In this document: positions 17,503-45,339 of the stretch, piece after piece
How positions within the stretch are numbered: the stretch's first letter is position 1
How the letters are laid out: each line of letters opens with the position of its first letter
Origin: Parcubacteria group bacterium
GTDB taxonomy: Bacteria > Patescibacteriota > Minisyncoccia > UBA10092
Direction of reading: 5' to 3'
DNA: 64,000 bases
Assembly (NCBI GenBank): GCA_016186325.1
Contig: JACPLW010000002.1
Location: 1,485 to 65,484 of the forward strand
Program-made: the position numbers and the translations under genes
Notes under the pieces: generated by a model
Told to the model about the DNA's origin: nothing
What the model saw: the letters and a program-made list of their open reading frames with translations, nothing else
Databases searched by the model: none

Positions 17503-17527
17503 CGGGGCATAGTATACCGGCAGTACG
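17503..17527 (+). pseudogene. 5' fragment (acceptor strand + D arm) of a tRNA-Pro
   Basis: CGGGGCA-TA-GTAT-ACCGGCA-GTAC-G; acceptor complement TGCCCCG lies at 18660-18666. Confidence 0.65.
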
Positions 17528-17576
17528 CAGAAGAAAAATTTTATTATTTCTATAATCGGGCAATTAAAATCTAAAA

Positions 17577-17649
17577 CAGGGTGTGGTCTAGCAGCTATGA
17601 CGCCGGCTTCGGGAGTCGGAAATCGAGGGTGCAAGCCCCTCCACCCTGA
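17577..17649 (+). tRNA. tRNA-Pro(CGG)
   Basis: CAGGGTG/CACCCTG acceptor, CCGGC-TTCGGGA-GTCGG, atypical T-loop TGCAAGC. Confidence 0.82.
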
Positions 17650-17653
17650 CAGG

Positions 17654-18550
17654 TCAAGCAGTAAGAAACTTTTTAAACTTATTTTTCAGGTTCTTCTCTG
17701 AAAATTCCTTAGGGTAAATGTCTTTAGAATAAATCGCTATTAAAGCAATTTTATTTTTATAACAAAGTTTCTTTTTTTCTTTTATGGCCCGGTCATATCT
17801 GGGGCTATCGTTTGCTAACCCAAAATATTCTACAAAAGTTTCTTTATTTTTAGCGAATACTTTCCAATCCGTTTTATGGTGTGTTTTTGGATAACACGCA
17901 TCTCTTTCGTGTAATATATTATTTTTATAAAGCCAGTTATCAATCAAAAGCTCCGAAACGGAATCGCATAAATGACCATCTATAGCCGTAGCATTAATAC
18001 GCCTATACATCCGATTGTCGTGTGAGCGATTGGGGATAAACCCTGCCGCCTGAATAGTATTATTCCAAGAACCAAAAATTTTTATACACGACTTAGTAAT
18101 TCTTTCCATCTCTCGCCTCGCGGGTACTCTTTCAAATTTCTGCGTAAACTGTTTTATGATATCTATAAGTTGTTCAGAGGTATGGCTCCTTGTTTCTATC
18201 CGGCACTTCATAGAGCAATATTTTAGATTTCCATTACCCTTTTTGAAATGCTCTTTGCAATTTATGCAAGTTTTTAATTGCGCCTTTCTCTTCGGACTTT
18301 TTTTATTATTTACTATTGCGGCACAAGACCGAGAACAATAACTATGTGGAGAGATTTCGTTGGGTGTTCGTTTGAAAATCTTGCCGCAATTTTCACATAT
18401 CAATTTTTGTTTTTTCGTTTTATAGTAGTATTCGCACTTTCTTGAACAATAAAAATTCCACTTAAATTTTAAATTTTCATTAAATCGACCGACACTTCGA
18501 TAAACTGGCTTTTTACAATTTTTACAAAAAACTTTTTTAAGATTGGTCAT
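17654..18550 (-). CDS. putative homing-type endonuclease (multiple CxxC/YCSxxC Zn modules + C-terminal PD-(D/E)xK-like domain)
   Basis: CKNC, YCSRKC, CENC, YCSRSC, FGSWN repeat, DSVSE..IDNWL..TDW..VEYFG. Confidence 0.65.
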   Translation of the reverse strand: MTNLKKVFCKNCKKPVYRSVGRFNENLKFKWNFYCSRKCEYYYKTKKQKLICENCGKIFKRTPNEISPHSYCSRSCAAIVNNKKSPKRKAQLKTCINCKEHFKKGNGNLKYCSMKCRIETRSHTSEQLIDIIKQFTQKFERVPARREMERITKSCIKIFGSWNNTIQAAGFIPNRSHDNRMYRRINATAIDGHLCDSVSELLIDNWLYKNNILHERDACYPKTHHKTDWKVFAKNKETFVEYFGLANDSPRYDRAIKEKKKLCYKNKIALIAIYSKDIYPKEFSEKNLKNKFKKFLTA

Positions 18551-18628
18551 GGGTATTATTTACTATTTTGTGTTTTATAAATTAATGTTAAATTAAAAGA
18601 GCTTAGTCTTTATTGATTATACCATAAA

Positions 18629-18670
18629 TGGGAGGATTTAGCACTGGTTCGATTCCCAATGCCCCGACCA
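18629..18670 (+). pseudogene. 3' fragment of a tRNA-Pro (anticodon to CCA), degenerate T stem
   Basis: TGGGA-GGATT-TAGC...TTCGATT...TGCCCCG-A-CCA, collinear with tRNA-Pro(TGG) at 39447. Confidence 0.65.
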
Positions 18671-18746
18671 GTTGAAATAAAACTATTTCGCTTTTGCAAT
18701 AGTTTAAAGTATGGTAGAGTTGTTGAATTAAGATGCGCAACAATAA

Positions 18747-19352
18747 ATGAACTTCCTTGAAGAATCCGTAAAAGAAGACCTAAGTCAGCCAAAGGATGAG
18801 GAAATTTTGATTTTATCGCTTGATAAGCCGGCGCTTTTTAAAATTTTAATTGACCGTTACGAAGCGGCTTTTTTAAGAAAAGCGTTTGATATCCTGAAAC
18901 AACATGAAGAGGCCGAGGATATAGTTCAGGAAACATTCGTAAAAATTTATTTTAACGCCAAAAAATTCAAAAAAATGGCGGGGATTGAGTTTAAGAGCTG
19001 GGCTTACAAGATCCTCGTAAATACCGCCATCAGCCGATATCGGAAAACGAGCAAAAAATGGCAGGCCGAATCTACCAATCCGCTTGATTTGGAGCTAGCA
19101 AGCGAGCGAAACTTATCAACCGAAGATATCGTTTTAGAAAGCGAGACAAAAAGCTTGGCGTCTGAATTATTGTCGCGCCTTCCCGAACAACTCGGCCGCT
19201 TGCTTTCAAAATACTATATTGAAGACAAGCCGTATAAGGATATAGCAAAAGAAGAGTCAATAACTGTTCCGGCCTTAAAAATGAAGTTATTTCGAGCCAA
19301 AAAAATTCTAAAAAATCTTACCAAAAACGATGAAAACGGACATAAAATATAA
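18747..19352 (+). CDS. ECF-type RNA polymerase sigma factor
   Basis: AEDIVQETFVK, FKSWAYKI, region 4 YKDIA...KMKLFRAK. Confidence 0.9.
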   Translation: MNFLEESVKEDLSQPKDEEILILSLDKPALFKILIDRYEAAFLRKAFDILKQHEEAEDIVQETFVKIYFNAKKFKKMAGIEFKSWAYKILVNTAISRYRKTSKKWQAESTNPLDLELASERNLSTEDIVLESETKSLASELLSRLPEQLGRLLSKYYIEDKPYKDIAKEESITVPALKMKLFRAKKILKNLTKNDENGHKI

Positions 19353-19710
19353 AAATCAGTTAAGTGACCGCGTAATGAGGCGAGTTTATTTCATATGGTT
19401 TTCAAGGCGCGTTTTGCCTTATCTTGCGGCAGAAGCCATGTTGTTCTCGGCATTCCTTTATCTGATCGGCCAACAGGTTTACGTGGCCAAAGTTTTGGAA
19501 TATGCGACATCGGTATTGGCCTCAAATATAGCCCATCCGGCGACTTTTGCGTCTTTTGCTATAGACCTATTTATCAGAACCGGCATTGGCGTACAAATTT
19601 CAGTAATAGGCTCTTTAGCCATGGTTTTCTTTCTCTTTAGAAACTTAATCAGCTCCACGTTCCAACTAATGGCGGCAAAAGAAACCAAATTGAATAATCA
19701 GATGTTATAG
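19330..19710 (+). CDS. membrane protein, candidate anti-sigma factor
   Basis: Overlaps the ECF sigma gene; hydrophobic segments. Confidence 0.55.
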   Translation: MKTDIKYKNQLSDRVMRRVYFIWFSRRVLPYLAAEAMLFSAFLYLIGQQVYVAKVLEYATSVLASNIAHPATFASFAIDLFIRTGIGVQISVIGSLAMVFFLFRNLISSTFQLMAAKETKLNNQML

Positions 19711-19740
19711 AGTAGTAAAGGTCGTTTTTACAAAAATATT

Positions 19741-19781
19741 AAACAAACCAGTCCCGCATATGCGGGACTGGTTTGTTTTTT
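19741..19781. terminator. bidirectional terminator
   Basis: AAACAAACCAGTCCCGC-ATAT-GCGGGACTGGTTTGTTT. Confidence 0.75.
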
Positions 19782-19795
19782 CACTATAAATTTTA

Positions 19796-19866
19796 AGCGG
19801 GTAGGGGGAATCGAACCCCCGTCATTAGCTTGGAAAGCTAAGGTAATTCCATTATACGATACCCGC
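19796..19866 (-). tRNA. tRNA-Gly(TCC)
   Basis: GCGGGTA acceptor, TTAGC-TTTCCAA-GCTAA. Confidence 0.92.
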
Positions 19867-19921
19867 CTTCGTCCCGCCTCGGCGGGACTTCGGCGGGGCA
19901 AGCCCGCCAAAACTAAAGCCA

Positions 19922-20194
19922 TTATCTTACCGCTTCTTTTAAGTTTTTTCCGGCGCGGAACTTTGGAACTTTTACCGCCGCAATCTGAATTTTTTCTCCG
20001 GTGCGGGGATTAACTCCAACCCGGGCCTTTCTTGATGAAACGCTAAAAGCGCCGAAACCGGTTAAAGAAACTTCTTCGCCTCTAGAAAGCGAGGATGTAA
20101 TTTCATCCAATGTAGCGTCTATAGCTCTTTCGGCTTCAGCTTTAGTAGAGCCGAGTTTTGCCGCTACCATATCAACTAATTTATCTTTGTTCAT
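19922..20194 (-). CDS. hup: DNA-binding protein HU
   Basis: GFGAF, RKARVGVNPRTGE, PKFRAGK. Confidence 0.95.
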   Translation of the reverse strand: MNKDKLVDMVAAKLGSTKAEAERAIDATLDEITSSLSRGEEVSLTGFGAFSVSSRKARVGVNPRTGEKIQIAAVKVPKFRAGKNLKEAVR

Positions 20195-20233
20195 ATGATT
20201 CTTTTAATAATACTATTTTAGATTTTATAATTT

Positions 20234-21757
20234 TTACCGAGCATACTCAATAGCTCTCGTTTCTCTAATAACGTTAACTTTAATTTCGCCCGGGTATTTC
20301 AGTTCGCTTTCAATTCTTTTGGCAATTTCCTTCGCCAATTGAAGCGCTTTCAAATCATCAATAGTCTGCGGAGCAACGAAAACCCTGATTTCCCGGCCGG
20401 CAGAAATGGCGTATGATTTTTCAACGCCTTCAAAAGAGTTAACAATACCCTCGAGTTCGGTAAGCCGCTTGACATAGTTTTCAATCGTATCGCGCCGCGC
20501 GCCGGGCCGGCCTCCGGAAATGCCGTCGGCGGCAGTTACGATATACGATTCAAGAGTAGAAAAAGGATAATCCTCATGATGCGACTCCATTCCTCTAATA
20601 ACGGCCTCATCAACGCCGTATTTTTTAAGAATTTTTCTTCCCAATTCAACATGGGTACCCTCAATTTCATGGTCAACCGCCTTGCCGATATCGTGGAGCA
20701 AGGCCGCTTTTTTAGAAATCTCAACATTGGCGCCGAGCTCCTTTGCCATCATTCCGGAGATATGAGCCATTTCAATTGAGTGAATAAGAACATTTTGACC
20801 GTAGCTGGTGCGAAACGCCAAACGGCCTAAAAGTACAACAATTTCTTTCGGCAAGCCTAAAATGCCGACCTCGTAAGCCGCGGCCTCACCTGCTTCCACC
20901 AATTTTTTGTTTACCTCTTTTTTTGCTTCTTCAACTTTTTCTTCAATTCTGGCCGGTTGAATCCGTCCGTCGCTCATCAGCTTTATTAAAGCGGTTTTAG
21001 CAATCTCCCGCCTTAACGGATCAAATGAAGAAAGAGTTATAGCTCCGGGCGTTTCATCAACTATTACTTCCACGCCGGTTAATCTTTCAAGCGTGCGGAT
21101 ATTGCGGCCTTCTTTTCCGATAATCCGACCCTTTAAATCGTCTGACGGAAGGTTAACAGTAGAAGTAGTAATTTCGCTAACGTGAGAGCGGGCGTATCTT
21201 TGAACCGCCACAGTCATAATTTCCCGCGCCCTTTTTTCCAACTCTTCAATTCGGTTTTTTTCCATTTTGGAAATAGCCGCAACAAGATCGGTTTTAGAAT
21301 CTTCTTCTACTTTTTTAAATAAACTGTTCTTCGCTTCTTCGCCCGACATTCCGGCAACATGTTCAAGCATTTCTTCGCTTTTTGCTTTGAAAACCTCGGC
21401 TTCTTGCTTGATGGTTTTAACCGCGTTAACCTGGCCTTCAATGTCCGCCTTCAAGTTTTCGAGCTCGCTTTCTTTCTGATCAATTTTTCTAATTTGAGAG
21501 TTTAATCGCTCTTCTTGGCGCGTTAAAACCGCGAGTTTTTCCCGCTCTTGATTTTTCGCGTCTTCAAAAATTTTTACTGCCTGGTCTTTTGCTTGAAGCA
21601 AAAGTTCTTTGCTTTTGGTTTTTGCTTCTTCAAGCTGGTTCTTGATCTTAGTTTCTGCCGAATTTAAACTTCTTGTAGCAAAAATCTGGCGAGTAAGATA
21701 GCCCAAAGCCGCACCCAATGCCAAGGCCAGGGCGCCGATTATAAAATAGAAGGTCAT
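20234..21757 (-). CDS. rny: ribonuclease Y
   Basis: N-terminal TM, coiled coil, KH GRIIGKEGRNIR, HD LLHDIGK. Confidence 0.96.
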   Translation of the reverse strand: MTFYFIIGALALALGAALGYLTRQIFATRSLNSAETKIKNQLEEAKTKSKELLLQAKDQAVKIFEDAKNQEREKLAVLTRQEERLNSQIRKIDQKESELENLKADIEGQVNAVKTIKQEAEVFKAKSEEMLEHVAGMSGEEAKNSLFKKVEEDSKTDLVAAISKMEKNRIEELEKRAREIMTVAVQRYARSHVSEITTSTVNLPSDDLKGRIIGKEGRNIRTLERLTGVEVIVDETPGAITLSSFDPLRREIAKTALIKLMSDGRIQPARIEEKVEEAKKEVNKKLVEAGEAAAYEVGILGLPKEIVVLLGRLAFRTSYGQNVLIHSIEMAHISGMMAKELGANVEISKKAALLHDIGKAVDHEIEGTHVELGRKILKKYGVDEAVIRGMESHHEDYPFSTLESYIVTAADGISGGRPGARRDTIENYVKRLTELEGIVNSFEGVEKSYAISAGREIRVFVAPQTIDDLKALQLAKEIAKRIESELKYPGEIKVNVIRETRAIEYAR

Positions 21758-21960
21758 ATTGATATTTTCCTAAAATCTTTAAAGTCATTTTAGTACTTGT
21801 ACATGATAACAAAAATAAATATTTTTGTCAAAGGTGTTTATTTATGAAAAATTTGATTTAAAAAAAACCGCTTAATGACCAAGCGGAACTATTTTTATAA
21901 TTAGTTTTTTCTTTCTTTTAACGTTCTGCCGATTTTATATTCCGTCCCTATCTTTCTCTT

Positions 21961-22263
21961 TCATGCGCTGTCTCCTGTACGAAACAAATGACGAAATGGT
22001 TCAAGATATTTCTTAGAAATCTTCTTATCCCTGACTAGGGTCATAAGATCTCGGTTTTCCTTTGGATCTTTGTGATGAGCGGTAATAGTTGCGCCTTGTG
22101 TCTGTTCAAATAGTATCCACATATAGGTGCGGAGGGCATCGCTTATAACTTCAACGTTCTTTCGTCTTGTAATCTTAGTAAATTCTCTAATTGCATCAAC
22201 GGCTTTACCTGTAACTTCAATAGTTAATTTCTTTTTCTTTGCCATTTCTGTCTCCATTATCAT
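21961..22263 (-). CDS. small hypothetical protein (ribbon-helix-helix-like)
   Basis: KKLTIEV...EVISDALRTY pattern. Confidence 0.5.
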   Translation of the reverse strand: MIMETEMAKKKKLTIEVTGKAVDAIREFTKITRRKNVEVISDALRTYMWILFEQTQGATITAHHKDPKENRDLMTLVRDKKISKKYLEPFRHLFRTGDSA

Positions 22264-22295
22264 TTGATTTAGTTTTTAAATAACAAACTTCGTTT

Positions 22296-22443
22296 AAAAC
22301 AAAAATAGCACCTGGTGCTATTTTTGTAAAGTGAGCGGGCCGCCTCGTCCGCCAACAAGGTTGGCGAGACGAGCGAGACATTGCACGCCCCTCCTTCGCC
22401 CCGCTTTGCGGGGCTTCGGACGGGCAAGCGTTAGAACTTGTTT
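22296..22443. repeat. 148-bp direct repeat, copy 1 (copy 2 at 24361-24508)
   Basis: About 6 mismatches by eye; terminator hairpin plus a conserved site invaded by two palindromes. Confidence 0.9.
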
Positions 22444-22506
22444 GGCGGGTGTAGTAAATGATTGGTTTGTGCCAAGTTTCAAATAAAAAATAGCCGCAGA
22501 GCGGCT

Positions 22507-22983
22507 TTATTTCTGATACCTCACAATATCTATACCCAAATCGATTGGGCCGAAAGCAAGGGGCAGAAGTTCCCTAATAGTAGTGAGAACAATTAACTCT
22601 TTCTTGGTGGTTGAAAGAACAATCTGTAAATCACAACCGGATATTTGGGATATTTCGTAAAGCACTTGTCTGCAACTTCCACAGGGTCCTGTAACCTCGG
22701 TCGTATCAAAGTTCTCACCACGAGCAATGACGGCAATGCCTATGAATTTTCGTATTCCCATTGCATTCGCCCTAAGTACCGCCGAGCGTTCTGCACAAAT
22801 TGTTGAACCATAAGCGGCGTTTTCAAAATTCGTTCCTGATATTAATTGTCCATCTTGTGCAATGAGCGTTGCCCCAACATAGAAGTGAGAATAAGGATTA
22901 TATGAATTTTTGAGAACTTCCAATGCTGAATTTAATGCTTCTCGTTGTAGTTGACTCAACAATTCATATTTTACTGTCTGCAT
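22507..22983 (-). CDS. cdd: cytidine deaminase
   Basis: PYSHFYVGA, NFENAAY, CAERSA, PCGSCRQ. Confidence 0.93.
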   Translation of the reverse strand: MQTVKYELLSQLQREALNSALEVLKNSYNPYSHFYVGATLIAQDGQLISGTNFENAAYGSTICAERSAVLRANAMGIRKFIGIAVIARGENFDTTEVTGPCGSCRQVLYEISQISGCDLQIVLSTTKKELIVLTTIRELLPLAFGPIDLGIDIVRYQK

Positions 22984-23245
22984 TTTTGCCTCCACTATTA
23001 CTGCAGCATGAATGTGTCAACTGTAAATTGTATAACATATTTATTTTTTTGCAAGCAGTTTAAAATTTCCTTTCATCACTCGTAACCGCAACAAAAACAA
23101 CCGCGCAATTGCGCGGTTGTTTTTATAACAAGCAGGACATTGCACGCTTGCCCACATTGTTTATTTTTGTGAAATGAGAAAACCGCATGGCGTACCATGC
23201 GGCTTCTCGGTGAACGTTGTTACCGAGTTGTTTCTACTGCGACGG

Positions 23246-23830
23246 CTAGTTAGCCGTCGATATCTTCATCCGTACCGTAGGTCGGTGGATGAAAAGAAGG
23301 TACATCATCATGGTGTTGCCAGTCAGGAATCCGACCGGCTGGATCAAGTGCTCCCAGTTAAGCGTTGGGATTGCGAGCATCGCGGGGATACAAGAAGCCC
23401 AGAAGAAGCACCAGCCTGCACGAGACTCATCCTGTGGCCTGTACCATATATTCACGAAAGTCGGGATTGTTCCGACCAATCCCGTGACTTGCGCCGCCAA
23501 CATTCCAAGAATGGGGCTGTCAAAAATCCCCCAGAGCGCGATGCCGACCAGCGCGCCTACGAGCGACCACGTGTCCACTCGCGTCCATCCTGACTTGCCG
23601 TACTTGAGCGACAGTAGGAAGACGAGACACGCTCCGGTGATCGCTCCGACAATTTGTCCATTCACTGCATCCTTCACATACATCCCCGCGAAGGTGATAC
23701 CGTCTATGACCAACCAGATCAACCACGAGGCTTTCATTGGTTGGGTCTGCCGCTTGATTATTGCGGCAACGTAGGGCACGAACCCTAGTAAGAAGATGAC
23801 TCCAGAGAGCTGTGACAGAAACGTCCGCAT
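23246..23830 (-). CDS. multi-pass membrane protein (PQ-loop-like), GC-rich
   Basis: GGAGG RBS; 6-7 hydrophobic segments. Confidence 0.7.
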   Translation of the reverse strand: MRTFLSQLSGVIFLLGFVPYVAAIIKRQTQPMKASWLIWLVIDGITFAGMYVKDAVNGQIVGAITGACLVFLLSLKYGKSGWTRVDTWSLVGALVGIALWGIFDSPILGMLAAQVTGLVGTIPTFVNIWYRPQDESRAGWCFFWASCIPAMLAIPTLNWEHLIQPVGFLTGNTMMMYLLFIHRPTVRMKISTAN

Positions 23831-23995
23831 TGCGCACCTCCATTTTGTCTGTGAGTGTTTGGGGATTTAATAAGTATGATCTCTGCGACACAATAAAGCT
23901 CAGGATTTCTTCAGCTCAATTGTGTCGCAGGGATGAATTTAAAGATCCAATATTGATACATGCAATTATACCATATAAACTTGATGCTTGTCAAA

Positions 23996-24030
23996 TGAGC
24001 GGGACATTGCACGACGTTAGAACCTGTTTT
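23996..24030. repeat. uninterrupted core of the repeated inter-cassette site
   Basis: TGAGCGGGACATTGCACGACGTTAGAACCTGTTTT; partial copy at 23131-23146. Confidence 0.75.
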
Positions 24031-24101
24031 GAGCAAAATAAAACTGCCCTGGTCTATGCCTTGTCGACAGTTGTTATGATAAAGTGATGGACAGAGTAGT
24101 A

Positions 24102-24320
24102 TTATCGATAATCTCGATTACCGGGTGGTTCTAAAATTAAGACACTGTTCTCGGAAATGTTTAATTCTTTAAGCTTTGGTTTCAAGCCACCGTAGTTGTC
24201 TTTTTCGTATTGCTCATCTAGAAGCCTTTTTGCTTCCAGCTCATCATTAGCAGTTATCAAGAGCACTTGAGGTGTGCTGTAGAAGTCTCTTTCACAGTAA
24301 AATACGCACTTGTTGGCCAT
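24102..24320 (-). CDS. small hypothetical protein
   Basis: 72-aa ORF between repeat sites. Confidence 0.55.
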   Translation of the reverse strand: MANKCVFYCERDFYSTPQVLLITANDELEAKRLLDEQYEKDNYGGLKPKLKELNISENSVLILEPPGNRDYR

Positions 24321-24360
24321 TTTTCTTCCCCTTGTCTCTTAACTTTTAAGATTAAAGAAC

Positions 24361-24508
24361 AAAACAAAAATAGCACCAGGTGCTATTTTTGTAAAGTGAG
24401 CGGGCCGCCTCGTCCGCCAACAAGGTTGGCGAGACGAGCGAGACACTGCACAACCCTCCTTCGCCCCGCTTTGCGGGGCTTCGGACGGACAAGCGTTAGA
24501 ACCTGTTT
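24361..24508. repeat. 148-bp direct repeat, copy 2
   Basis: Matches 22296-22443. Confidence 0.9.
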
Positions 24509-25052: not shown

Positions 25053-25080
25053 AGCGGGTGAGCAGAATCGAACTGCCGTT
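25053..25080 (-). pseudogene. 3' fragment (T arm + acceptor strand) of a tRNA-Gly
   Basis: Reverse complement: GGCAG-TTCGATT-CTGCT-CACCCGC-T. Confidence 0.65.
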
Positions 25081-25162
25081 AATCTTTTTAAGATAACGGG
25101 CTATCCACAAGACAAAACCGAACCATTGTGATATTATTTATAGGTGGTAACAACACGTCATT

Positions 25163-25834
25163 ATGCGTAATGATAAGCATATTGCTATAAAATTAAGAAA
25201 GCAAGGGAAAAGTTACAGTAAGATAAGCAAAGAGTTGAACGTGCCTAAAAGCACGTTGTCTGCTTGGCTTTCGGATATAAATTGGTCTAGGTTTATAAAA
25301 ATTGGTCTTACGAGAAGAGCTAATTATATTGCTAGAAAACGATTACGATCATACAATAAAAAACAGAAAATATTTTGGGAAGCGTGGCGAGCACAGGCAA
25401 GACAACAAGCTCGCAGTAGCTTTCCGAAACTTAAGTCAAATCCTCTCTTTATATCAGGAATAATGATTTATTGGGGCGAAGGTGATAGTAAAATAGAAAA
25501 TTCCAACGTCAGGATATCAAACACTAATCCAGATATGATCAGGGTTTTTAATTTATTTTTGCGGATAATTTGTAAGGTCCCAAAAGAAAAAATAAAAATG
25601 GCAATGATTTTATACCCTGATCTCAATGAAATCAAATGTAAAAATTTTTGGAGTAAGACTTCTGGTGTGCCTAAGGGTCAATTTATAAAAACTCAATTTA
25701 TCAGGGGTAAACATCCTACCAAAAGATTGACTCACGGAATTGCTTTAGTATACTACCCTAGTAGAGAACTAAAAGAAAAAATATTCGTCTGGATTGAGCT
25801 TTTCCACAAACAATTTCCGCTCATGCGGGTGTAG
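25163..25834 (+). CDS. HTH + LAGLIDADG-like protein
   Basis: N-terminal GKSYSKISKELNVPKSTLSAW HTH; GIMIYWGEGD...ISNTNPDMI. Confidence 0.65.
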   Translation: MRNDKHIAIKLRKQGKSYSKISKELNVPKSTLSAWLSDINWSRFIKIGLTRRANYIARKRLRSYNKKQKIFWEAWRAQARQQARSSFPKLKSNPLFISGIMIYWGEGDSKIENSNVRISNTNPDMIRVFNLFLRIICKVPKEKIKMAMILYPDLNEIKCKNFWSKTSGVPKGQFIKTQFIRGKHPTKRLTHGIALVYYPSRELKEKIFVWIELFHKQFPLMRV

Positions 25835-25898
25835 CACAATGGTAGTGCGCTTGGTTGCCAATCAAGATACGTGGGTTCGATTCCCATCACCCGCTCCA
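25825..25898 (+). tRNA. tRNA-Gly(GCC), CCA encoded
   Basis: GCGGGTG acceptor, CTTGG-TTGCCAA-TCAAG. Confidence 0.92.
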
Positions 25899-31804: not shown

Positions 31805-31811
31805 TTTTCGG

Positions 31812-31882
31812 TGGACCTACGGGGAATCGGACCCCGGATTTGATCATGCCATGATCACGTGTTACCACTATACCATAGGCCC
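31812..31882 (-). tRNA. tRNA-Ala(GGC)
   Basis: G3.U70 acceptor GGGCCTA/TAGGTCC, TGATC-ATGGCAT-GATCA. Confidence 0.88.
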
Positions 31883-31893
31883 CTATTGTAAAA

Positions 31894-32562
31894 TTAAATT
31901 ATTTCTGCAATTTTCATTAACTCATTAAATATATCTGCAGAAAAATAATCAATTCTGCAAACACCCTTATAATCCAATTTTTTGGATGGCCTCCCTAATG
32001 TTCTTGGATCTATTTGTGCTTTATAAAATTTTTTAAGAGGAATTCCTGTTGTTTTAGACCAAAATTTTTCTAGAGTTTTTATATCTTGGTCGGCTCTACA
32101 TTGTAAGGTGCATCGAAATTTATTTTCATCAATATTATAACAGCGTCGTAATAATCGTAAAAATAAGCTAATTACTTTTGGATCAGAGTTCCCGAAAACT
32201 ACGGAACAATTCGATTTTTTTCCTTCGCCCATATATAGCATTGCGACAACGATTTTAGCAATATTTTTATCTTCAATAAGTTTTTTAAGATGCCAAACGC
32301 GATCAGATACTAATTTTAAGTACTGTTCTCGTTTTTTTCTGTTTGTCGCCAAAGCCAATTTTCGACTTCTATTAACATTATCTATGACCCGATTTTTTAA
32401 TACTTGTTTTTGATCTTCAGACAATACAATATTTTTAAACCAAACTGATAACGTACTCTTGGAAATTGGATGATTTAATTTATTCTGAATTTCACCGTAT
32501 GTTTTTCCATTTTTTCGCAACAATACGGCTTTATTTTTTAAGTGGTAGTATCTTGATTTCAT
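31894..32562 (-). CDS. HTH + LAGLIDADG-like protein (homolog of 25163-25834)
   Basis: GKTYGEI..ISKSTLSVW; MLYMGEG..FGNSDPKVI..FWSKTTGIP. Confidence 0.65.
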   Translation of the reverse strand: MKSRYYHLKNKAVLLRKNGKTYGEIQNKLNHPISKSTLSVWFKNIVLSEDQKQVLKNRVIDNVNRSRKLALATNRKKREQYLKLVSDRVWHLKKLIEDKNIAKIVVAMLYMGEGKKSNCSVVFGNSDPKVISLFLRLLRRCYNIDENKFRCTLQCRADQDIKTLEKFWSKTTGIPLKKFYKAQIDPRTLGRPSKKLDYKGVCRIDYFSADIFNELMKIAEII

Positions 32563-37968: not shown

Positions 37969-38038
37969 CCGGCGCCCCACACGCCTTGGAGCGATTCGTC
38001 CGTCAGTCGACGGACGGACTCGCTCCGGGGCGCTTTTT

Positions 38039-38431: not shown

Positions 38432-38567
38432 CGCATTTCAGTTTAAAAAATTTTTTGATATTAATGAACATTTTACAATACACTTTAAAAAGTGTAAACG
38501 TGTGGATAAATAAAATTAAGAAAAAACTTTACGGGAACAAGTTTTTCTTTGTTTACACCGAGCCTGC

Positions 38568-39137
38568 TTACTTTGTAAATTTGAAAGTGGAAAGTATTTG
38601 TTTAAGAATTTCTTTTGATTCAGATGTAACGGGTTGAAGGTTAAAGGTAACGACTCCTCCATTGGGATGAGAAATCCACGCGCTGGCACTGTCGTCAGCA
38701 CCCGTTCCCCAATCAATTGACGCGATAACTTTACCTATCTTAAACGATTCGCACCTCAAGGAATCATTGGGGTATGCGCTACAATAAGTTATTCCCATAA
38801 CACTAAGTTGGCTTTGGGAAATAAAGCCAAGAGTTATAACATACCCGTTATTATATTTCGCTCCTCCGTCACTTCCTTTTGGTAAATAACAAAGAGCGAG
38901 CGATGTATCCCCTAATTCTCTTTGCGATTCACAGGAGGTAGGCGGATATTGAAAAGAATAGTTCAAATTACTGTCGGTATATGTTTTCAAATTTACGGTT
39001 TTATCTGGCGTTGGTGACTGTTGCGCGACAGGTTCTGACTTCTTTACAAAAGCAAAGTATCCTACTGCGCCGGCAAGAGCGGCAACAATAAACAGAATCA
39101 AAATAATGTTTGCAAAATTTTTTCGGTTGATATTCAT
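38568..39137 (-). CDS. membrane-anchored hypothetical protein
   Basis: N-terminal TM, YSFQYP, QILSTFKF. Confidence 0.7.
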   Translation of the reverse strand: MNINRKNFANIILILFIVAALAGAVGYFAFVKKSEPVAQQSPTPDKTVNLKTYTDSNLNYSFQYPPTSCESQRELGDTSLALCYLPKGSDGGAKYNNGYVITLGFISQSQLSVMGITYCSAYPNDSLRCESFKIGKVIASIDWGTGADDSASAWISHPNGGVVTFNLQPVTSESKEILKQILSTFKFTK

Positions 39138-39297
39138 ATGTTAGTTAACAATTTAATTTTTTGATTTTATGATTAAAAAACTTTCTCTTCCCTCTTTTTT
39201 ATATACTATCCGTAAAACACGGTCTCTGTCAAAATTTCAAATTTGTTTTCTGCGTGTTTAGTAAAAATTACCATAAAAATTAAATTTTTTACCGTTG

Positions 39298-39369
39298 CGC
39301 CCTCGAAGGGAATCGAACCCCTATCAACGCCTTAGAAGAGCGCTGCTCTGTCCATTGAGCTACGAGGGC
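39298..39369 (-). tRNA. tRNA-Arg(TCT)
   Basis: GCGCT-CTTCTAA-GGCGT. Confidence 0.9.
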
Positions 39370-39446
39370 AATAATTTAGAATAAACGTAAAATAACATAA
39401 AACGGGTTGAAATTCAACTAAAATTTTGCTATAATATTTAAAATAT

Positions 39447-39517
39447 CGGGGTATAGTGTAATGGCAGCACGAGTCTTTTGGGAAGATTTAGTCTCGGTTC
39501 GAATCCGAGTACCCCGA
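39447..39517 (+). tRNA. tRNA-Pro(TGG)
   Basis: CGGGGTA acceptor, AGTCT-TTTGGGA-AGATT. Confidence 0.92.
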
Positions 39518-39592
39518 CAGAGAAAAACTAAATTTTGGGCCTATAGTCTAGTGGTAGAACACGTCATTCGTCCCGATTTATTAAATTTTTAA

Positions 39593-39847
39593 ATGTTTTA
39601 TTGCTATATATTAAAATCGAGAATAAATGGTGCTTATTATGTAGGAAGTTGCCAAAGCATTGCTATAAGGCTTGACCAACATAATAAATTTTTAGTTCCT
39701 TCCACAAAAAGATATGTTCCATGGGATTTAGTCTATCAAGAAAAATTTGTTACATTAAAAGAAGCTAGAAACAAGGAACTAAAAATAAAGTCCTGGAAGA
39801 AAAGAAGTTCTATAGAAAAATTAGTTAAAACATTTCAAAATTTTTAA
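39593..39847 (+). CDS. small GIY-YIG nuclease
   Basis: YCYIL...YYVG...RLDQHN...EARNKELKIK. Confidence 0.9.
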   Translation: MFYCYILKSRINGAYYVGSCQSIAIRLDQHNKFLVPSTKRYVPWDLVYQEKFVTLKEARNKELKIKSWKKRSSIEKLVKTFQNF

Positions 39848-39884
39848 TAAATCGAGGATCCGCGATAACCTTGGTGGGCCCAGA

Positions 39885-39958
39885 GGGCCCATAGTTAAGT
39901 GGTATAACGGCGCATTCGCATTGCGTAAGCGGGAGTTCGATTCTCCCTGGGTCCACCA
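39885..39958 (+). tRNA. tRNA-Ala(CGC), nested, CCA encoded
   Basis: GGGCCCA/TGGGTCC acceptor, GCGCA-TTCGCAT-TGCGT. Confidence 0.9.
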
Positions 39959-40456
39959 AGGTTATCGGGACATTGACGAAACGGCGGTCCGATTCCGCCT
40001 AGGTCCACCAAACAGGAAATTGCAAGCAAGAGGGAGTCGCCTTGCCCGTCTCGCTCCCGCGCTCCGCGCGGAAAAATGGTGGCGCAATTCTTGAACAAGC
40101 CCTAAGAGGCTATTTTGTTTTCTAAGAAAACAAAATTCAAATAATGACAAGGTTTTGGGCATAATTATTGAGGTTTTAGGCCATATTTTTGATTATGCCC
40201 AAAACCTTGACAAACTGACGTAAATTTGCTATAATAAAGATATAAAAATTGATGTAGTTTTAGATCAATTTTTGCTCTTGTTCTTTGCAAATTTGCGAGC
40301 GAATCTCCTTGAGATTTTGAAATGAGCAGCGCATTGAGTGGCTGAAACACCACTTGTTGCGCTAACAGATATTTAATGCACTGCTTATAACGAGTTAGAC
40401 CTCGTCGTGGTCGTGTAGGACACACGATTCAAAATCGCAAACCAAAGGAGGAGCCG

Positions 40457-41133
40457 ATGGAAGTAGGAGTGCTGTTCTCAAGCGACGGCATTCTGGCGCT
40501 AAACAAACCGCCCGGGATGTGCAGTCAGGGACCCAAGACTTCGGATATCCCGGAGTTGTGGGAACTGCTACGAACACACCACCCTGGCGGTCATGTCGCT
40601 CATCGGATCGATCAGTACACATCTGGTATCAATCTAGCTGGTGCTTCAAAACGGCAGATCAGTTATCTGATGCGTAACTGGCACCAGATCACGCGAAAGA
40701 ACTACCTGTCTGTCTCATCAACAACCCGACGTGGAGCGAGAAGGTTGTGGACACGCCCCTCAAGGGTAAGTCCGCAATCACTGCGTTCACGGTGCTTGAG
40801 CGTTCTGGATCGTTGGCGTTGATTCAATGCCAGCTAGTCCAAAACGGGCGGACTCATCAAATCCGGCGACACCTGAAGTCGATCGGTGCACCGATCGTCG
40901 GAGACCGAAAGTACAAGGGTCCGACAACCAGGGTGCGGTCTGGTCAACTGCTTCATGCGTGGCGCATGGAGGTCAGACTGCCGGACGATTCTGGTAAGCC
41001 CGGCCCTTGGATTACCATTCAGGCGCCGATCCCCAACGATTTCAAGCAGATCAACTTCGATTGGAGTCGCTGGGATGCCAACGCCAACACAACGCTGGAG
41101 ATCTGGGCAGTTCCCTCCGGTTGGCGACACTAA
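40457..41133 (+). pseudogene. frameshifted RluA-family pseudouridine synthase
   Basis: LNKPPG and HRIDQYTSG in one frame; GRTHQIRRHL and PIVGDRKY in another; shift near 40705-40716. Confidence 0.8.
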
Positions 41134-41301
41134 CTCGCCCCTCTCAACTCAAAAGGCCCCCGTGGTAGCAACATCACCACGCGGGGCCTTTTTCATTTTT
41201 ACAAAGAACTTTTGATAGCAGAAAAATAATTTTTCTGCTATCATCTAAAAGAAAATTTTTCATAAGATTTGATACAACGAACAGCAGAAATGCTGATTTT
41301 T

Positions 41302-41334
41302 TGTTTCACGTGAAACATTGTTTGACGTGAAACA
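41302..41334. promoter_or_regulatory. two tandem parS sites
   Basis: TGTTTCACGTGAAACA (perfect) and TGTTTGACGTGAAACA. Confidence 0.85.
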
Positions 41335-41389
41335 ATGTAATTGTTAATCTTCAACTCAAAGAAATTGGACTTTAAAATTGGGGGAAAAC

Positions 41390-42001
41390 ATGAATAGCAA
41401 TTGTGTTTTCTGCGACCGAACCAAGATTGAGGAGCGTATTATTGCCGAAACGGAAGATTGGTACTTAATAGCTACCATTGGCCAAATAACAGAAGGCGGC
41501 TATGTTCTCATAATCCCCAAGCGGCATGTACCTTGCGCCGGAGCGATGAAAGAGCAAGAGATTGTTAAAATGGACGACATATCGCGCATTGCAAGCGATT
41601 ACACAGAGGTAGAGTACGGCGTAAGACCTATCATCTTTGAACATGGCATTGTGGGCCAGACGATTCAACATGCCCATCTTCATCTTTTACCCGCCCGGAT
41701 TCGCATGTGCGGCAGAATCTATCGGGATTTTCCCAACGCGCAGATCTGCTTCTTAGATTCGCTCAAACTGCTTCGATGGACTTATGATGCAATGGGAGGA
41801 AAAAAGTATCTCCTTTGGAGCACCCCGGAAAACCTGTTGAAGACCGTTATTGATCCGCCAGCGCCGTTGCAATATTTACGGCTAATTGCAGCCGAACTTG
41901 TTGGCCATCCGGAGCGCGCAAATTGGCGCGATTGTGATCCTGAAACCGACAAAAAACTGTGGCAGGAGACCGTTAGCCGCCTTAAGCCATATTTTTCATG
42001 A
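41390..42001 (+). CDS. HIT-family hydrolase
   Basis: CVFC, IIPKRH, GQTIQHAHLH. Confidence 0.85.
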   Translation: MNSNCVFCDRTKIEERIIAETEDWYLIATIGQITEGGYVLIIPKRHVPCAGAMKEQEIVKMDDISRIASDYTEVEYGVRPIIFEHGIVGQTIQHAHLHLLPARIRMCGRIYRDFPNAQICFLDSLKLLRWTYDAMGGKKYLLWSTPENLLKTVIDPPAPLQYLRLIAAELVGHPERANWRDCDPETDKKLWQETVSRLKPYFS

Positions 42002-42031
42002 ATTTTAAAAAAATAACCCGAATAGCAAGCG

Positions 42032-42850
42032 CTATTCTGGGTTTTTTAATTTTTTATTCCTTAATAACAGGCGTATTTTGTACATTTTATCTTCATATTC
42101 CGCTTGAAAAACCTCATGAAGATAAAATCCTAAAGAAACAAGTTGAATTATCAGAAGAATAATACCTGTATAAAGGTAAAAATTGTTTTTCCATATTATG
42201 CCGGCTAAATAGAAAATCATGCTGAAAGCGGTAAGACCGGTGTGAAACCGCGCCCCGATCGTCGTTACTAAGTCATTTAGCAGAAATTCTTGCATAAACT
42301 CAAAATACAGCTGATCCCGCCTTTCGCGACGCTTTTCTCGCTGATAAAGCCACGTACCCAGCAAAATCAAAAACATACATGTTGCAGTGACTAGTAGAAT
42401 CGTGTTCATAATAAATAATGCCGGCCATCCAAACGATTTTGTCGCGTAAATGCTTAAAAATATCATCCATAAGATAAGTAAAAAATCTCTGGTATGATCC
42501 AAGAGAGTCCCCAAAGCTGTAACTTCATTGTTATTTCTCGCGACTGGGCCGTCTAAAAGATCGGTAATCCACGCAAAAGCTAAAAGCCATACTTGACGCC
42601 CAACATCATCCCCAAAATAAAACAGATCAAAAATCGCCCAAATAAGAACAACGAATCCCACCACGGTTAAATGATTTGCTCTTATTCCTATGGCTGCAAA
42701 AATATCGGTTATTTTTGTCCGCTTAAAGAACCGGTCGCGCCACTTTTTCTCAAGCGGTGTCCAATATCCCTCCTTCGTTAAAGCTTCCGCTGACGCCAAG
42801 GCTTTGGCGGACAAGTCGGCGGGCAAGCTCTCTTTTTCCTCTTCGGCCAT
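42032..42850 (-). CDS. CDP-alcohol phosphatidyltransferase
   Basis: DLLDGPVAR...GTLLDHTRD. Confidence 0.88.
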   Translation of the reverse strand: MAEEEKESLPADLSAKALASAEALTKEGYWTPLEKKWRDRFFKRTKITDIFAAIGIRANHLTVVGFVVLIWAIFDLFYFGDDVGRQVWLLAFAWITDLLDGPVARNNNEVTALGTLLDHTRDFLLILWMIFLSIYATKSFGWPALFIMNTILLVTATCMFLILLGTWLYQREKRRERRDQLYFEFMQEFLLNDLVTTIGARFHTGLTAFSMIFYLAGIIWKNNFYLYTGIILLIIQLVSLGFYLHEVFQAEYEDKMYKIRLLLRNKKLKNPE

Positions 42851-42962
42851 TATTGTCCCTCCAAGTTTTTAAGGGTCTGATTTTTAATAAAAGAGTAAAC
42901 GAAATGTGAAAAAAAATCAATCTGCCAGCTGGTAAATTGATTTTTTTTCACCACAAATGATA

Positions 42963-43002
42963 TGTTTCACGTGTAACATTTGATAATGTTACACGTGAAA
43001 CA
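42963..43002. promoter_or_regulatory. two parS sites
   Basis: TGTTTCACGTGTAACA and TGTTACACGTGAAACA. Confidence 0.82.
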
Positions 43003-43407
43003 ATGACCACCGAGAAACAAAACATAGGAAGATTAGGTGAAGATATTGCCGTAAAATACCTTGAAAACAAAGGTTATAGCATTTTAACTCGCAATTATCG
43101 CAAGCCATGGGGCGAAATTGACGTAATCGCATCGGAAAACGTTGGTAAAAACCAGTTCTTGGCTCTAAAGAGCCAAGAACTGGTTTTTTTTGAAGTCAAA
43201 ACCCAAAACCAAAGATTTGAATGGCGGCCGGAAGAAAATATAACAAGACATAAAAAACACCAATTATCAAGAATTGTCGCAACTTACATGAAAGAACATG
43301 AAATTTCAGAAAGTCAAGATTGGAGAATTGACGTTTTGGCAATAAAACTAGACTTTGAAACAAAAAATGCTCAAATTGAGCACATCAAAAACATTGCTCT
43401 AAATTAA
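43003..43407 (+). CDS. yraN: YraN-family endonuclease
   Basis: GRLGEDIA, RNYR..GEIDVI, FFEVKT. Confidence 0.88.
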   Translation: MTTEKQNIGRLGEDIAVKYLENKGYSILTRNYRKPWGEIDVIASENVGKNQFLALKSQELVFFEVKTQNQRFEWRPEENITRHKKHQLSRIVATYMKEHEISESQDWRIDVLAIKLDFETKNAQIEHIKNIALN

Positions 43408-43590
43408 ATCCACTTATCCCCAACTTACCCACCCCTCCGCCCAGAAATTGGGCGAGGCTTGCCCTGCAACTGCGGGATGGCAAAACTATTGATGTCGGAC
43501 ATCAATAGTGGGTGTTGACAGCAAAGTTTAAAGTTATATGCTATGAGCATAAACAGAACTTTAAAATTTTAAGAGAGAAGGGTCTCTGAA

Positions 43591-44826
43591 ATGGGAAAGA
43601 AAACGCAACGTTTAGTTGAATTAGCCCATAAGCACTTGCCCAGAAATTACGCTCCACCGGATGATCTTGTTTTAAGAAGAGGACATGGCTGTTATCTTGA
43701 AGACGTTAATGGTAATACCTACCTTGATATGCTTTCTTGCTATTCTGCCGCAAACTCCGGTTACGGCAATAAATCGGCAAATACGGCAATATTACGGCAA
43801 ATTGCCAAAGGTATTTTGTGCAACGCCAATTGTTTCTGGGAAGAGCAGAAAATTCTTTTTGCCCATGACTTGGCCAAATTCTGCAACGATTTTGGCTTAA
43901 ACGGACTTGATGTAGTTTTACCTATGAATAGCGGCGCCGAAGCGGTTGAAACGGCTATAAAAATAGCGCGTAAATGGCGTTACTGTTATTTAGCAAAAGG
44001 TATTGCCTATGACACAGCAGAAATTATTTGCTGCGAAAACAACTTTCATGGCAGAACTCTCGGCGCTATTAGCATGTCAACAGTAGATCAATATAAAAAA
44101 TACTTTGGTCCGCTAATCCCAGGCATAAAAATCGTTCCTTTCGGTAATGTAGACGCTTTAAAAAAGACAATTAATAACAATACAGCCGCATTTTTAGTTG
44201 AACCGATACAAGGCGAGGGCGGAGTTATTATCCCGCCCAATGACTACCTTTCCGAAGTAAGGAAAATTTGCGATGAACAAAATGTTTTATTTATTTTGGA
44301 TGAAATCCAGAGCGGTTTTGGCCGAACCGGTAGAATGTTTGCCTGCAACTACGATAATGTTGTTCCGGATATGATAATTTTGGGCAAGGCCTTGGGCGGC
44401 GGACTTCCGATTTCCGCGGTTGTCGGCAAAGAAGAGATAATGGATGTTCTTGATCCGGGAGATCACGGTTCTACATTTGGCGGCAATCCTTTGGCTTGCG
44501 CCGCGGCGCGGGCCTCGCTAAGTTTTATGCGGCGCCGTCGGCCGGATAGGCGAGCGGCTGAATTAGGGTTTTACTTTAAAAATAAGCTTAACAAGGTGGC
44601 GGCGCAAAGTCCGCACATTAAAGAAATAAGAGCACTTGGTCTTTGGATTGGCATTGAAGTTCACCATAGCGGCCCAACGGCTCATGAATTTTGCAAAGAG
44701 CTTTATAAAGAGAAAATACTCTGCAAAGAAACTAGAGAATATACCATTCGCATGAGCCCGCCCCTTACAATCACTAGAAAAGAGCTTGATTTTGCGCTTT
44801 CAAAAATCCAAAAAGTTTTTACATAA
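43591..44826 (+). CDS. rocD: ornithine aminotransferase (class III)
   Basis: MNSGAEAVETAIK, FHGRT, EPIQGEGG, DEIQSG, GKALGGG, HGSTFGGNPL. Confidence 0.88.
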   Translation: MGKKTQRLVELAHKHLPRNYAPPDDLVLRRGHGCYLEDVNGNTYLDMLSCYSAANSGYGNKSANTAILRQIAKGILCNANCFWEEQKILFAHDLAKFCNDFGLNGLDVVLPMNSGAEAVETAIKIARKWRYCYLAKGIAYDTAEIICCENNFHGRTLGAISMSTVDQYKKYFGPLIPGIKIVPFGNVDALKKTINNNTAAFLVEPIQGEGGVIIPPNDYLSEVRKICDEQNVLFILDEIQSGFGRTGRMFACNYDNVVPDMIILGKALGGGLPISAVVGKEEIMDVLDPGDHGSTFGGNPLACAAARASLSFMRRRRPDRRAAELGFYFKNKLNKVAAQSPHIKEIRALGLWIGIEVHHSGPTAHEFCKELYKEKILCKETREYTIRMSPPLTITRKELDFALSKIQKVFT

Positions 44827-44880
44827 TAAATTTTACCTCCATTGCATTTGGAGGTTTTATTATGTAAATTTATAGCCATA

Positions 44881-44953
44881 GGGCGACTAGCTCAATCGGC
44901 AGAGCGTCTCGTTTACACCGAGAAGGCAATAGGTTCGAATCCTATGTCGCCCA
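44881..44953 (+). tRNA. tRNA-Val(TAC)
   Basis: TCTCG-TTTACAC-CGAGA. Confidence 0.92.
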
Positions 44954-45054
44954 TAATTTAGCAAAGTGGGCCAAAGCCAAATGTTTGGCTTTGGCGGGAA
45001 TTTTAGTGAGCTTTAGCGAGCGTTAAAAAATTCCCCGGAAGAGCGACTCGTTTA

Positions 45055-45209
45055 TTCCCGATTTGTCTAAAAATTCAAGTTCTTGTAGAATTTTTAGCAA
45101 CAAATCGCAATCCCGCTTAAAGTGGGCGCATAGCTCAGCTGGTTAGAGCGTCGCATTTACACTGCGAAGGCCCTCCGTTCGAATCGGAGTGCGCCCACTT
45201 TGTGCGGGA
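45055..45209 (+). mobile_element. 155-bp anticodon insertion (TTCCCGA...GCGGGA) carrying a tRNA-Val(TAC), no ORF
   Basis: Same position and similar termini as the Ala insert. Confidence 0.72.
45124..45197 (+). tRNA. tRNA-Val(TAC), nested
   Basis: GGGCGCA/TGCGCCC acceptor, TCGCA-TTTACAC-TGCGA. Confidence 0.9.
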
Positions 45210-45339
45210 CACCGAGTAGGTCCGAGGTTCAATCCCTCGAACGCCCATCAAAATTTGATATTTGACACAACAAAAATAAGAAGTTATAATAGAAAAATTA
45301 GATCCGATAGCTCTTTTCAAATGTAAATGAGGGAACTAA

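Follow-up and report, generated by a model that had tools for sequence, protein, structure and literature searches.

A 64,000-nt stretch from the genome of a Parcubacteria group bacterium (hereafter the window) contains two tRNA genes, for Ala(CGC) and Val(TAC), each interrupted between positions 35 and 36 by an insert that holds an intact tRNA gene with the same anticodon (Table 1). The interrupted outer gene is called here the shell and the intact inner gene the cargo. The most probable reading, held at roughly two chances in three, is that such inserts are nuclease-driven selfish elements that carry a replacement for the gene they break and spread mainly by homing-type repair. At the sequence level, comparisons across genomes establish the anatomy of the elements, their precise insertion, the same-type cargo, the decay of the shells, the co-inheritance of nuclease and scaffold, and a patchy spread across distant hosts.

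The parent assembly comprises 751 kb and is 99.5% complete. Homologues indicate Patescibacteria, also known as the Candidate Phyla Radiation (CPR), and the sequencing runs holding the window sequence are groundwater metagenomes. G000 denotes this genome (C2, C5, C8, C9, C12 and C13 being its contigs), and the other G and L numbers denote other records. Contigs from two studies span the Ala 5' junction with zero differences, and one run may be the source of the window; among the pieces listed (1778 more are unlisted), none spans the Ala 3' junction or any Val junction by 31 nt free of differences.

Nested tRNA-Ala(CGC) and tRNA-Val(TAC) Genes

Excision of 39571-39970 and joining of 39537-39570 to 39971-40010 restores a 74-nt tRNA-Ala(CGC) with CCA, recognised by ARAGORN and split at 35/36. 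The inner gene (39885-39958) is the sole intact Ala(CGC) called in the whole assembly; it is identical to the outer gene at 52 of 70 positions, and its best matches (69, 67 and 66 of 71 positions) are cargo or genes from distant hosts. The outer 3' half agrees at 35 of 37 positions with the uninterrupted syntenic Ala(CGC) of the same-family genome G010. The outer 5' half is nearer to shells than to intact genes: 32-33 of 34 positions agree in L251 and L252, which hold the two closest elements, and at most 30 of 34 in any of 41 intact Ala(CGC) genes. The element thus took part of the shell along, the outcome expected of recombination through tRNA halves. The empty syntenic site, an uninterrupted Ala(CGC) directly after Pro(TGG), was found in four same-family genomes (L007, L011, L016 and L020). 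An empty joint (39570-39971) in runs X3 and X4 was considered as an allele of the same population and rejected: its likeness was 85% and its short side comprised 34 letters, values that, together with a depth above that of the organism, point to other organisms as its probable source.

The Val insert has ends of the same kind as the Ala insert, and the join test and end comparison bear out the proposal, made from a sequence-only reading of the window, that the two loci share both the 35/36 site and TCCCG…CGGGA-type ends. The Val 5' half has been broken again in the D-arm region by two palindromes, its debris opens with a piece resembling the left stalk arm of the element, and rejoining yields no tRNA. 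Elements in L209, L065 and L186 match the Val element at 80-88% identity, and in a relative present in two runs of one study the entire Val nest is replaced by 12 letters. Three nested loci had originally been proposed; the Ala nest proved exact and the Val nest real though further decayed, while the third, at Pro, is loose and no join works there.

Two observations adjoin the Val nest. The L065 record, whose Val element is 84% identical, is labelled a Nanoarchaeota bin, which would imply either interdomain transfer or a misbinned contig. A gene for a Xer-type tyrosine recombinase (45700-46596, minus strand; NF040815 above cut-off) lies 450 nt past the nest and is probably a housekeeping gene.

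Table 1. Positions of the nested tRNA loci and of further tRNA-linked features (window coordinates unless a contig of G000 is named).
Locus	Feature	Position	Strand	Support
Ala(CGC)	Outer (shell) tRNA-Ala(CGC), positions 1-35	39537-39570	+	Join test
Ala(CGC)	Double-hairpin element, 400 nt, TCCCG…CGGGA ends, inserted at 35/36 without target duplication	39571-39970	+	
Ala(CGC)	GIY-YIG nuclease gene, 84 aa, catalytic domain only, in loop of hairpin 1	39593-39847	+	
Ala(CGC)	Central palindrome between hairpins 1 and 2, TCGNGGATCCNCGA	39852-39865	No strand	
Ala(CGC)	Inner intact tRNA-Ala(CGC), top of hairpin 2	39885-39958	+	
Ala(CGC)	Outer (shell) tRNA-Ala(CGC), positions 36-76	39971-40010	+	
Val(TAC)	Intact tRNA-Val(TAC), upstream of nest	44881-44953	+	
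Val(TAC)	Outer tRNA-Val(TAC), 5' debris with two palindromes inside	44966-45054	+	
Val(TAC)	Non-autonomous double-hairpin element, 155 nt, at 35/36, nuclease gene absent	45055-45209	+	
Val(TAC)	Inner intact tRNA-Val(TAC) on stalk, CCA not encoded	45124-45198	+	
Val(TAC)	Outer tRNA-Val(TAC), position 36 to end	45210-45250	+	
Pro	5' part of outer tRNA-Pro, limited to acceptor strand and D arm	17503-17528	+	
Pro	Inner intact tRNA-Pro(CGG)	17577-17650	+	
Pro	298-aa protein, Cys-rich repeats and homing-endonuclease-associated repeat, putative nuclease	17654-18550	-	PF18780 above cut-off
Pro	Outer tRNA-Pro 3' piece, T stem damaged	18629-18670	+	
Gly(GCC)	Helix-turn-helix and LAGLIDADG-like protein, 223 aa, overlapping the start of tRNA-Gly(GCC) (25825-25898)	25163-25834	+	
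Ala(GGC)	Helix-turn-helix and LAGLIDADG-like protein, 222 aa, ending 11 nt before tRNA-Ala(GGC) (31810-31882)	31894-32562	-	
G000	Partial tRNA 3' copies	C5:150-373, C9:27740-27800, C5:42440-42545, C13 ~18730-18800, C9:79370-79440		

Correspondence Between Inner and Outer tRNA in Other Genomes

A junction pattern of CGGGA followed by a tRNA 3' half (pattern 1) was searched in 301 genomes of the same class, giving 107 matches, against 41 for the reversed pattern, as counted by hand. The pattern 1 loci analysed consisted of 30 that were returned plus 40 of the 73 other non-own matches (33 left out); these 40 were picked by eye for a tRNA-like 3' piece, blind to the upstream DNA. A second pattern, which also required an upstream T arm, gave at least 120 loci in a species-wide collection. 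Among the 90 distinct junctions with a good T stem, an intact tRNA lay no more than 150 nt upstream in 84, and three of the remaining six were near a contig end. The outer type was assigned from the 3' half alone, by nearest neighbours. Inner and outer types agreed in 78 of the 84 junctions, compared with a mean of 15.8 and a maximum of 29 in 10,000 shufflings; by set, the agreement was 28/28 in the class set (24 genomes) and 50/56 in the other. The 84 junctions cover 20 anticodons and include related records that are not independent. In the fully traced elements at 35/36 the inner and outer anticodons were the same in all 14, three of 17 rows having been dropped from this set (two for lying at other sites, one for an incorrect boundary). 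The test of inner against outer type had been set beforehand, and its result upholds both the predicted excess over chance and the idea of a mobile cassette that disrupts a tRNA gene while supplying that same tRNA.

All 78 matching inner anticodons start with T or C; since the pattern fixes the register, this represents a preference for sites within that register. The arrangement is not uncommon: verified nests bearing these ends occur in at least 24 of 300 class genomes, and an additional nested 3' half, indicative of re-nesting, was present in 8 of the 84 nests.

Further nests and tRNA fragments were observed alongside these. Records labelled Bacteroidota, Elusimicrobiota and other phyla also carry nests, although the bins may be mislabelled. 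In the Leu nests (L092, L130, L155, L158 and L171), several of which sit in records labelled Bacteroidota or other non-CPR phyla, the terminal helix of the element replaces the whole anticodon arm of the shell. Within G000, a tRNA-Glu(CTC) lies inside a split Glu-like shell at C5:29627-29812 (plus strand) with CCCGCC…GGCGGG ends; these represent a second end family, and a similar element is found at Ala(CGC) in L006. A stalked tRNA-Arg(TCG) lies inside an Arg-like shell at C9 ~45080-45255 (minus strand) as a D-loop insertion, the anticodon arm of this shell being replaced by a short palindrome; the ends of this nest likewise differ from those of the Ala and Val elements. At C2:95010-95397 (plus strand), a tRNA-Cys 5' fragment, itself split by a 30-nt double hairpin, is followed by a GIY-YIG gene and then by an intact tRNA-Cys. 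For tRNA-Leu, -Lys, -Trp and -Asp, incomplete copies of the 3' part were also seen, in several of which a palindrome replaces the anticodon arm.

The Double-Hairpin Scaffold

The 27 elements that were fully traced have a common plan, consisting of TCCCGA, hairpin 1, a central palindrome, hairpin 2 and TCGGGA; visual alignment was used for the Val family, in which the centre differs. Loop 1 contains the nuclease gene or a short filler and loop 2 a tRNA or filler, with the exception of L226, in which the tRNA is in loop 1; across the family, the hairpins carry a GIY-YIG gene, a tRNA, both or neither. After removal of L211, which had a wrong boundary, 26 elements remained, of which 24 have no target duplication and two a duplication of 1 nt; the base before the insert is G in 25 of them. 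Near-identical scaffolds were found at 10/11, in the D loop, at 26/27, at 35/36, in the T loop and at the ends of protein genes, so the earlier description of the elements as anticodon-targeting was too narrow. Cargo-free copies of ~65-85 nt are located in the D and T loops of shells (L225, L226, L254 and L261), and left-only (L252, L225) and right-only (L210, L163) derivatives exist.

The arm sequences vary, with 20 and 23 distinct 12-mers among the 26 elements, and the stems are Watson-Crick paired at 893 of 930 positions, a count in which local alignment favours matches. The ratio of G·U to A·C was 14:7 in the element stems and 192:10 in the stems of 346 tRNAs (p 2.5e-4). Paired arms lacking a G·U bias fit inverted repeats kept as DNA better than a structured RNA. 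The strict central palindrome was detected in 6 of 201 genomes of the phylum, that of the window included; in the other five it corresponds to elements at tRNA shells in two and to what look like chance matches in coding DNA in three.

The GIY-YIG Nuclease and Its Relatives

The 84-aa protein encoded by the Ala element matches PF01541 at 50.6 bits (cut-off 22.6), the domain covering nearly the entire protein. Its likeness to PDB sequences is weak (a UPF0213 protein at E 0.039 and SLX1 at E 0.56, the latter not significant), and its alignment with TIGR01453 (215 positions) involves residues 5-33 only. RNA fold prediction places the start codon within the stem of hairpin 1, a burial that could limit expression. 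Close homologues were found in 82 of 151 genomes, and one scan of viral contigs gave no close relative.

The central motif adjoins 24 of 27 GIY-YIG matches with at least 46.9% identity and 3 of 44 below that value, these three being the second fragment of one locus and two neighbouring elements. In a tree of 61 nucleases the scaffold label requires 4 changes, against 17.1 when shuffled, although the rows were chosen by similarity to one query and near-copies inflate the clustering. Members of the scaffold clade are found mostly at Ala 35/36. Scaffold and nuclease also occur together at the 3' ends of two protein genes, which from their translated ends we take to be uvrA (L223) and uvrB (L227), and where another gene begins (L228), and in all three cases a duplicate of the displaced gene piece lies alongside; at L262 and L263, also sites of the scaffold clade, no duplicate gene piece was seen. 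Among more distantly related small GIY-YIG genes, many possess separate inverted repeats and many lie directly against a tRNA gene. Groups of small GIY-YIG genes with their own inverted repeat, often away from tRNA genes, were noted at C8:68588, C12:41658, L235, L243, L250 and L119.

Introns, Duplication and Transposition as Alternatives

A new type of tRNA intron, by which the insert would be removed from the RNA and two tRNAs obtained per transcript, would explain why the Ala shell of the window rejoins perfectly with CCA and why rejoining also succeeds for 8 of the 14 shells of scaffold elements at 35/36. In Patescibacteria, group I introns are reportedly present at this same tRNA position, although the literature search did not locate them. 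The Rfam intron models, which can miss divergent cores and whose use had been suggested with the sequence-only reading, gave no match over 39200-45400 at E up to 10, nor in 12 related loci at E up to 0.5. In group I introns the 5' exon ends in U and the intron in G; here, the base before the insert is G (Ala) or A (Val) and the last base of the insert is A. The ends are also unlike the GUGYG…AY of group II introns, and the genome has no match to PF00078 (reverse transcriptase). Archaeal-type (bulge-helix-bulge) tRNA introns have their splice sites in two 3-nt bulges and need a splicing endonuclease and a ligase, whereas both Ala junctions, if the ends pair, fall inside a helix, and a profile search of the 99.5%-complete assembly gave neither PF01974 (splicing endonuclease) nor PF01139 (RtcB). 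Most shells are unjoinable: of the 53 with enough upstream DNA, at most 13 rejoin to the inner anticodon at a relaxed threshold, some of them by chance, and many Thr, Leu and Arg shells lack the 5' anticodon strand. With the absence of a G·U bias also against it, splicing is very improbable, and the broken tRNA gene is best read as a scar of invasion and not as an intron-bearing gene, the rejoinable shells (the window Ala and the 8 of 14) being read as younger insertions. Equally slight is the probability of local duplication and decay, in which a tRNA gene was duplicated in place and palindromes later settled in the spare copy, with the nuclease as a bystander. The outer 3' halves are indeed slightly closer to their own inner gene than to other genes of the same anticodon (mean +3.0 of ~38 positions, and above the mean in 74% of 81), and the genome contains many partial tRNA copies and palindromes. 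However, the Ala genes differ at 18 of 70 positions and the inner one is nearest to cargo and genes of distant hosts, the inner gene is always inside a hairpin of the element, and scaffold, site and nuclease clade recur across families. Local duplication is largely refuted for Ala and Val but may apply at Pro.

The inserts contain no integrase and show no target duplication, the two marks of an integrase-made tRNA island; together with the lack of a group I or II core, this agrees with what had been stated from the sequence alone. No HUH (Y1) transposase was found in the inserts, and one weak PF01797 match lies on another contig of the genome. Transposition could instead depend on the GIY-YIG protein itself: acting as a structure-specific nuclease, it would recognise the double hairpin with its four arms and carry autonomous as well as non-autonomous copies to new sites, with the cargo tRNAs as survivors of selection and homing playing a minor part. 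Near-identical scaffolds at many different sites without duplication, four arms able to pair in two ways with no RNA-type G·U bias, and the weak similarity of the nuclease to UPF0213 and SLX1 speak for this. It is nevertheless an unlikely account, as the element encodes no strand-joining enzyme, the shell 5' half common to the closest elements points to homologous recombination, the closest nucleases are almost all at a single site (Ala 35/36) and the SLX1 match is not significant. A broader and tentative proposal is a new class of bacterial mobile element, whose sole enzyme would be a minimal UPF0213/SLX1-like GIY-YIG nuclease acting on four-armed double-hairpin DNA. Such elements might insert autonomous copies and non-autonomous ones of 30-150 nt after a G without target duplication, capture whole tRNA genes or protein-gene ends as rescue cargo, and re-invade their own cargo to form Russian-doll nests. 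If true, this would give a function to the common small genes annotated as GIY-YIG family and account for many of the palindromes and tRNA fragments that CPR genomes contain.

Mobility, Immunity and Proposed Mechanism

The Ala element is 75-78% identical in L252, L255 and L257, whose host flanking proteins are 44-66% identical, and 86% identical in one host whose flanks gave no match. Among the features of homing elements, a homing-family nuclease gene (Ala only), a copy of the disrupted gene and empty alleles in relatives are present. Under the preferred reading of a replacement-carrying selfish element, autonomous members are those with a minimal GIY-YIG nuclease in loop 1, and others have a tRNA alone or nothing. 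The nuclease would nick or cut the target DNA and repair would copy the element in. An insertion into a needed gene would persist only with a replacement, in the form of a whole tRNA in the loop or a duplicated protein-gene end. Once established, cassettes may move on by recombination of the homing type through the tRNA halves, the DNA involved being probably acquired by competence; a ComEC-family competence gene is present in the host genome, and competence is reported to be common in this phylum (PMC12455944). The inner tRNA would be released from the transcript by ordinary tRNA processing, and the shell would never be spliced.

The suggestion that the cargo is resistant to cleavage found no support in the comparison of cargo and targets. 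Inner and outer Ala(CGC) genes do not differ over the central 11 bp, and cargo 17-mers recur as invaded targets, the L255 outer being that of the L257 and L258 inner genes and the L257 outer that of the L253 inner; in L197, inner and outer 17-mers are identical. The re-nested loci point the same way. An immunity specific to each element may nevertheless exist, given that in 13 of 14 cases the cargo gene departs from its own shell in the anticodon stem.

Several points weigh against spread by nuclease-driven homing. Sequence immunity of the cargo, which classic homing needs, is not visible in these comparisons, and homing cannot account for the first insertion of cargo-free copies at new sites, nor is the first capture of a cargo tRNA explained. 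The 84-aa protein has no separate DNA-binding domain, which leaves its specificity unexplained, and its role in movement is predicted from sequence. The spare intact Val(TAC) adjoining the Val nest makes rescue unneeded there. In the fold prediction, the acceptor strand of the inner Ala pairs with a duplicated upstream strand and not with its own 5' end, so this gene may be poorly processed. The left-only and right-only forms could equally stem from later deletion between repeats. To these may be added the single-query choice of rows and the inflated clustering in the nuclease tree, both described above.

The Pro Locus and Other tRNA-Linked Nuclease Genes

Both outer pieces at the Pro locus have tRNA-Pro genes as best matches and their acceptor strands pair at 7/7, but none of 625 joins yields a tRNA. 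The outer 3' piece is nearest to Pro(TGG) genes and the inner gene is Pro(CGG), so the anticodons may differ. TCCCG/CGGGA ends are absent from this locus. The 298-aa HNH-repeat protein has five homologues in 80 other genomes, three within 50 nt of tRNA-Pro, one ~600 nt from tRNA-Pro and one near none.

The two helix-turn-helix (HTH) and LAGLIDADG-like proteins are 29% identical to each other, and neither locus has a nested tRNA. Of 24 other loci with a member of the HTH family, 19 have it next to a tRNA gene; for the three top-scoring homologues that gene is Gly(GCC), as in the window. The structural model of the HTH protein has a predicted local distance difference test (pLDDT) score of 93.9, and E106-G107 is invariant. 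Residues 84-221 align at a middling level with an intein homing endonuclease (Z 6.6, root-mean-square deviation (rmsd) 3.5, 91 aligned) and with I-DmoI (Z 5.8, rmsd 2.9, 84 aligned); the profile match to I-DmoI has an E of 0.0078, and Foldseek with the model gave no match at E 0.001 or better. An inverted tRNA-Gly-like 3' fragment lies upstream of the HTH-LAGLIDADG-like gene at 25053-25095 (minus strand).

With GIY-YIG (PF01541), HNH-repeat (PF18780) and the two HTH-LAGLIDADG-like genes (middling Z), the count of four nuclease-like genes in three families given by the sequence-only reading stands. Its treatment of the three loci as one system does not: the ends and the nuclease family at Pro are different, and the Val nest encodes no nuclease and is accompanied by an additional intact Val(TAC). 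Lacking the double hairpin, the Pro locus and the two HTH-LAGLIDADG-like genes appear to be parallel cases of nucleases linked to tRNA genes.

Two further observations concern the genome at large. Neither tRNA-Ala(TGC) nor tRNA-Ile(GAT) was called by ARAGORN in any G000 contig; they are possibly unassembled together with the rRNA operon. An RNA pseudouridine synthase-like gene at 40457-41133 (plus strand) is apparently frameshifted, and this stretch is GC-richer, with ~2x the contig depth of its neighbours, and may be a two-copy or foreign segment.

Significance and Relation to Known Systems

Bringing the whole gene along would be a third route into an essential tRNA gene, beyond splicing and att duplication. 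The annotation of tRNA in reduced genomes is affected, because shells mimic intron-bearing genes, and horizontal swapping of tRNA genes is implied. The 400-nt Ala element, with its 84-aa nuclease and known empty site, offers a compact system for in vitro work.

GIY-YIG nucleases of the Seg and I-TevI type combine a catalytic domain with a separate DNA-binding domain, unlike the 84-aa protein, which is nearly all PF01541. REP/RAYT and IS200/IS605 systems have hairpin ends, no target duplication, an autonomous gene with short palindromic derivatives, and an HUH (Y1) transposase, in place of which the elements described here hold a GIY-YIG gene. SegB of phages T4/T6 cuts the DNA of a tRNA gene and spreads with neighbouring tRNA genes by recombination (PMC2330249, PMC13096335). 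It is likewise a free-standing GIY-YIG nuclease tied to tRNA genes; however, its 27-bp site is at the T stem-loop and its gene lies between intact tRNA genes, and the passages on SegB in these papers describe no nested gene, broken shell or hairpin ends. Group I introns and other insertions are described in CPR rRNA genes, together with GIY-YIG genes in inserts unlike either intron class (PMC11270868). The hosts are the same and these too are nuclease-bearing inserts in structural RNA genes, although the term tRNA is absent from the main text of that paper; in contrast to the rRNA group I introns, the elements described here have no intron core or terminal G, have decaying shells and carry a replacement gene.

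The double-hairpin elements (DHEs) of Allomyces and fission-yeast mitochondria (PMC10085805) are short, apparently mobile and gene-free, and resemble the cargo-free copies; the likeness is one of shape. DHEs are organellar, and the account names no mobilising enzyme or tRNA cargo. In fungal mitochondria, endonuclease open reading frames bring a replacement gene end with them, as in Allomyces atp6 and Glomus atp6, atp9, cox2 and nad3 (PMC3630166). As described there, a free-standing LAGLIDADG or GIY-YIG gene has entered an essential gene together with a foreign version of the part that it displaces, and the native part persists as a remnant; L223 and L227 have the same layout.

A literature search, with most subscription journals and supplements outside its scope, turned up no published case of a tRNA nested in one of the same type together with a GIY-YIG gene. 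The underlying logic is known from fungal mitochondria and SegB, and double-hairpin mobile DNA is known from mitochondria; the bacterial form was not found in print in this search. What is added here is the definition of the scaffold and its link to one nuclease group, the protein-gene targets, the G·U test and the immunity test. Compared with the fungal elements of PMC3630166, the elements reported here have a bacterial host and mostly a tRNA target, carry the whole gene inside the insert, and combine an 84-aa nuclease with a conserved double-hairpin scaffold and non-autonomous copies.

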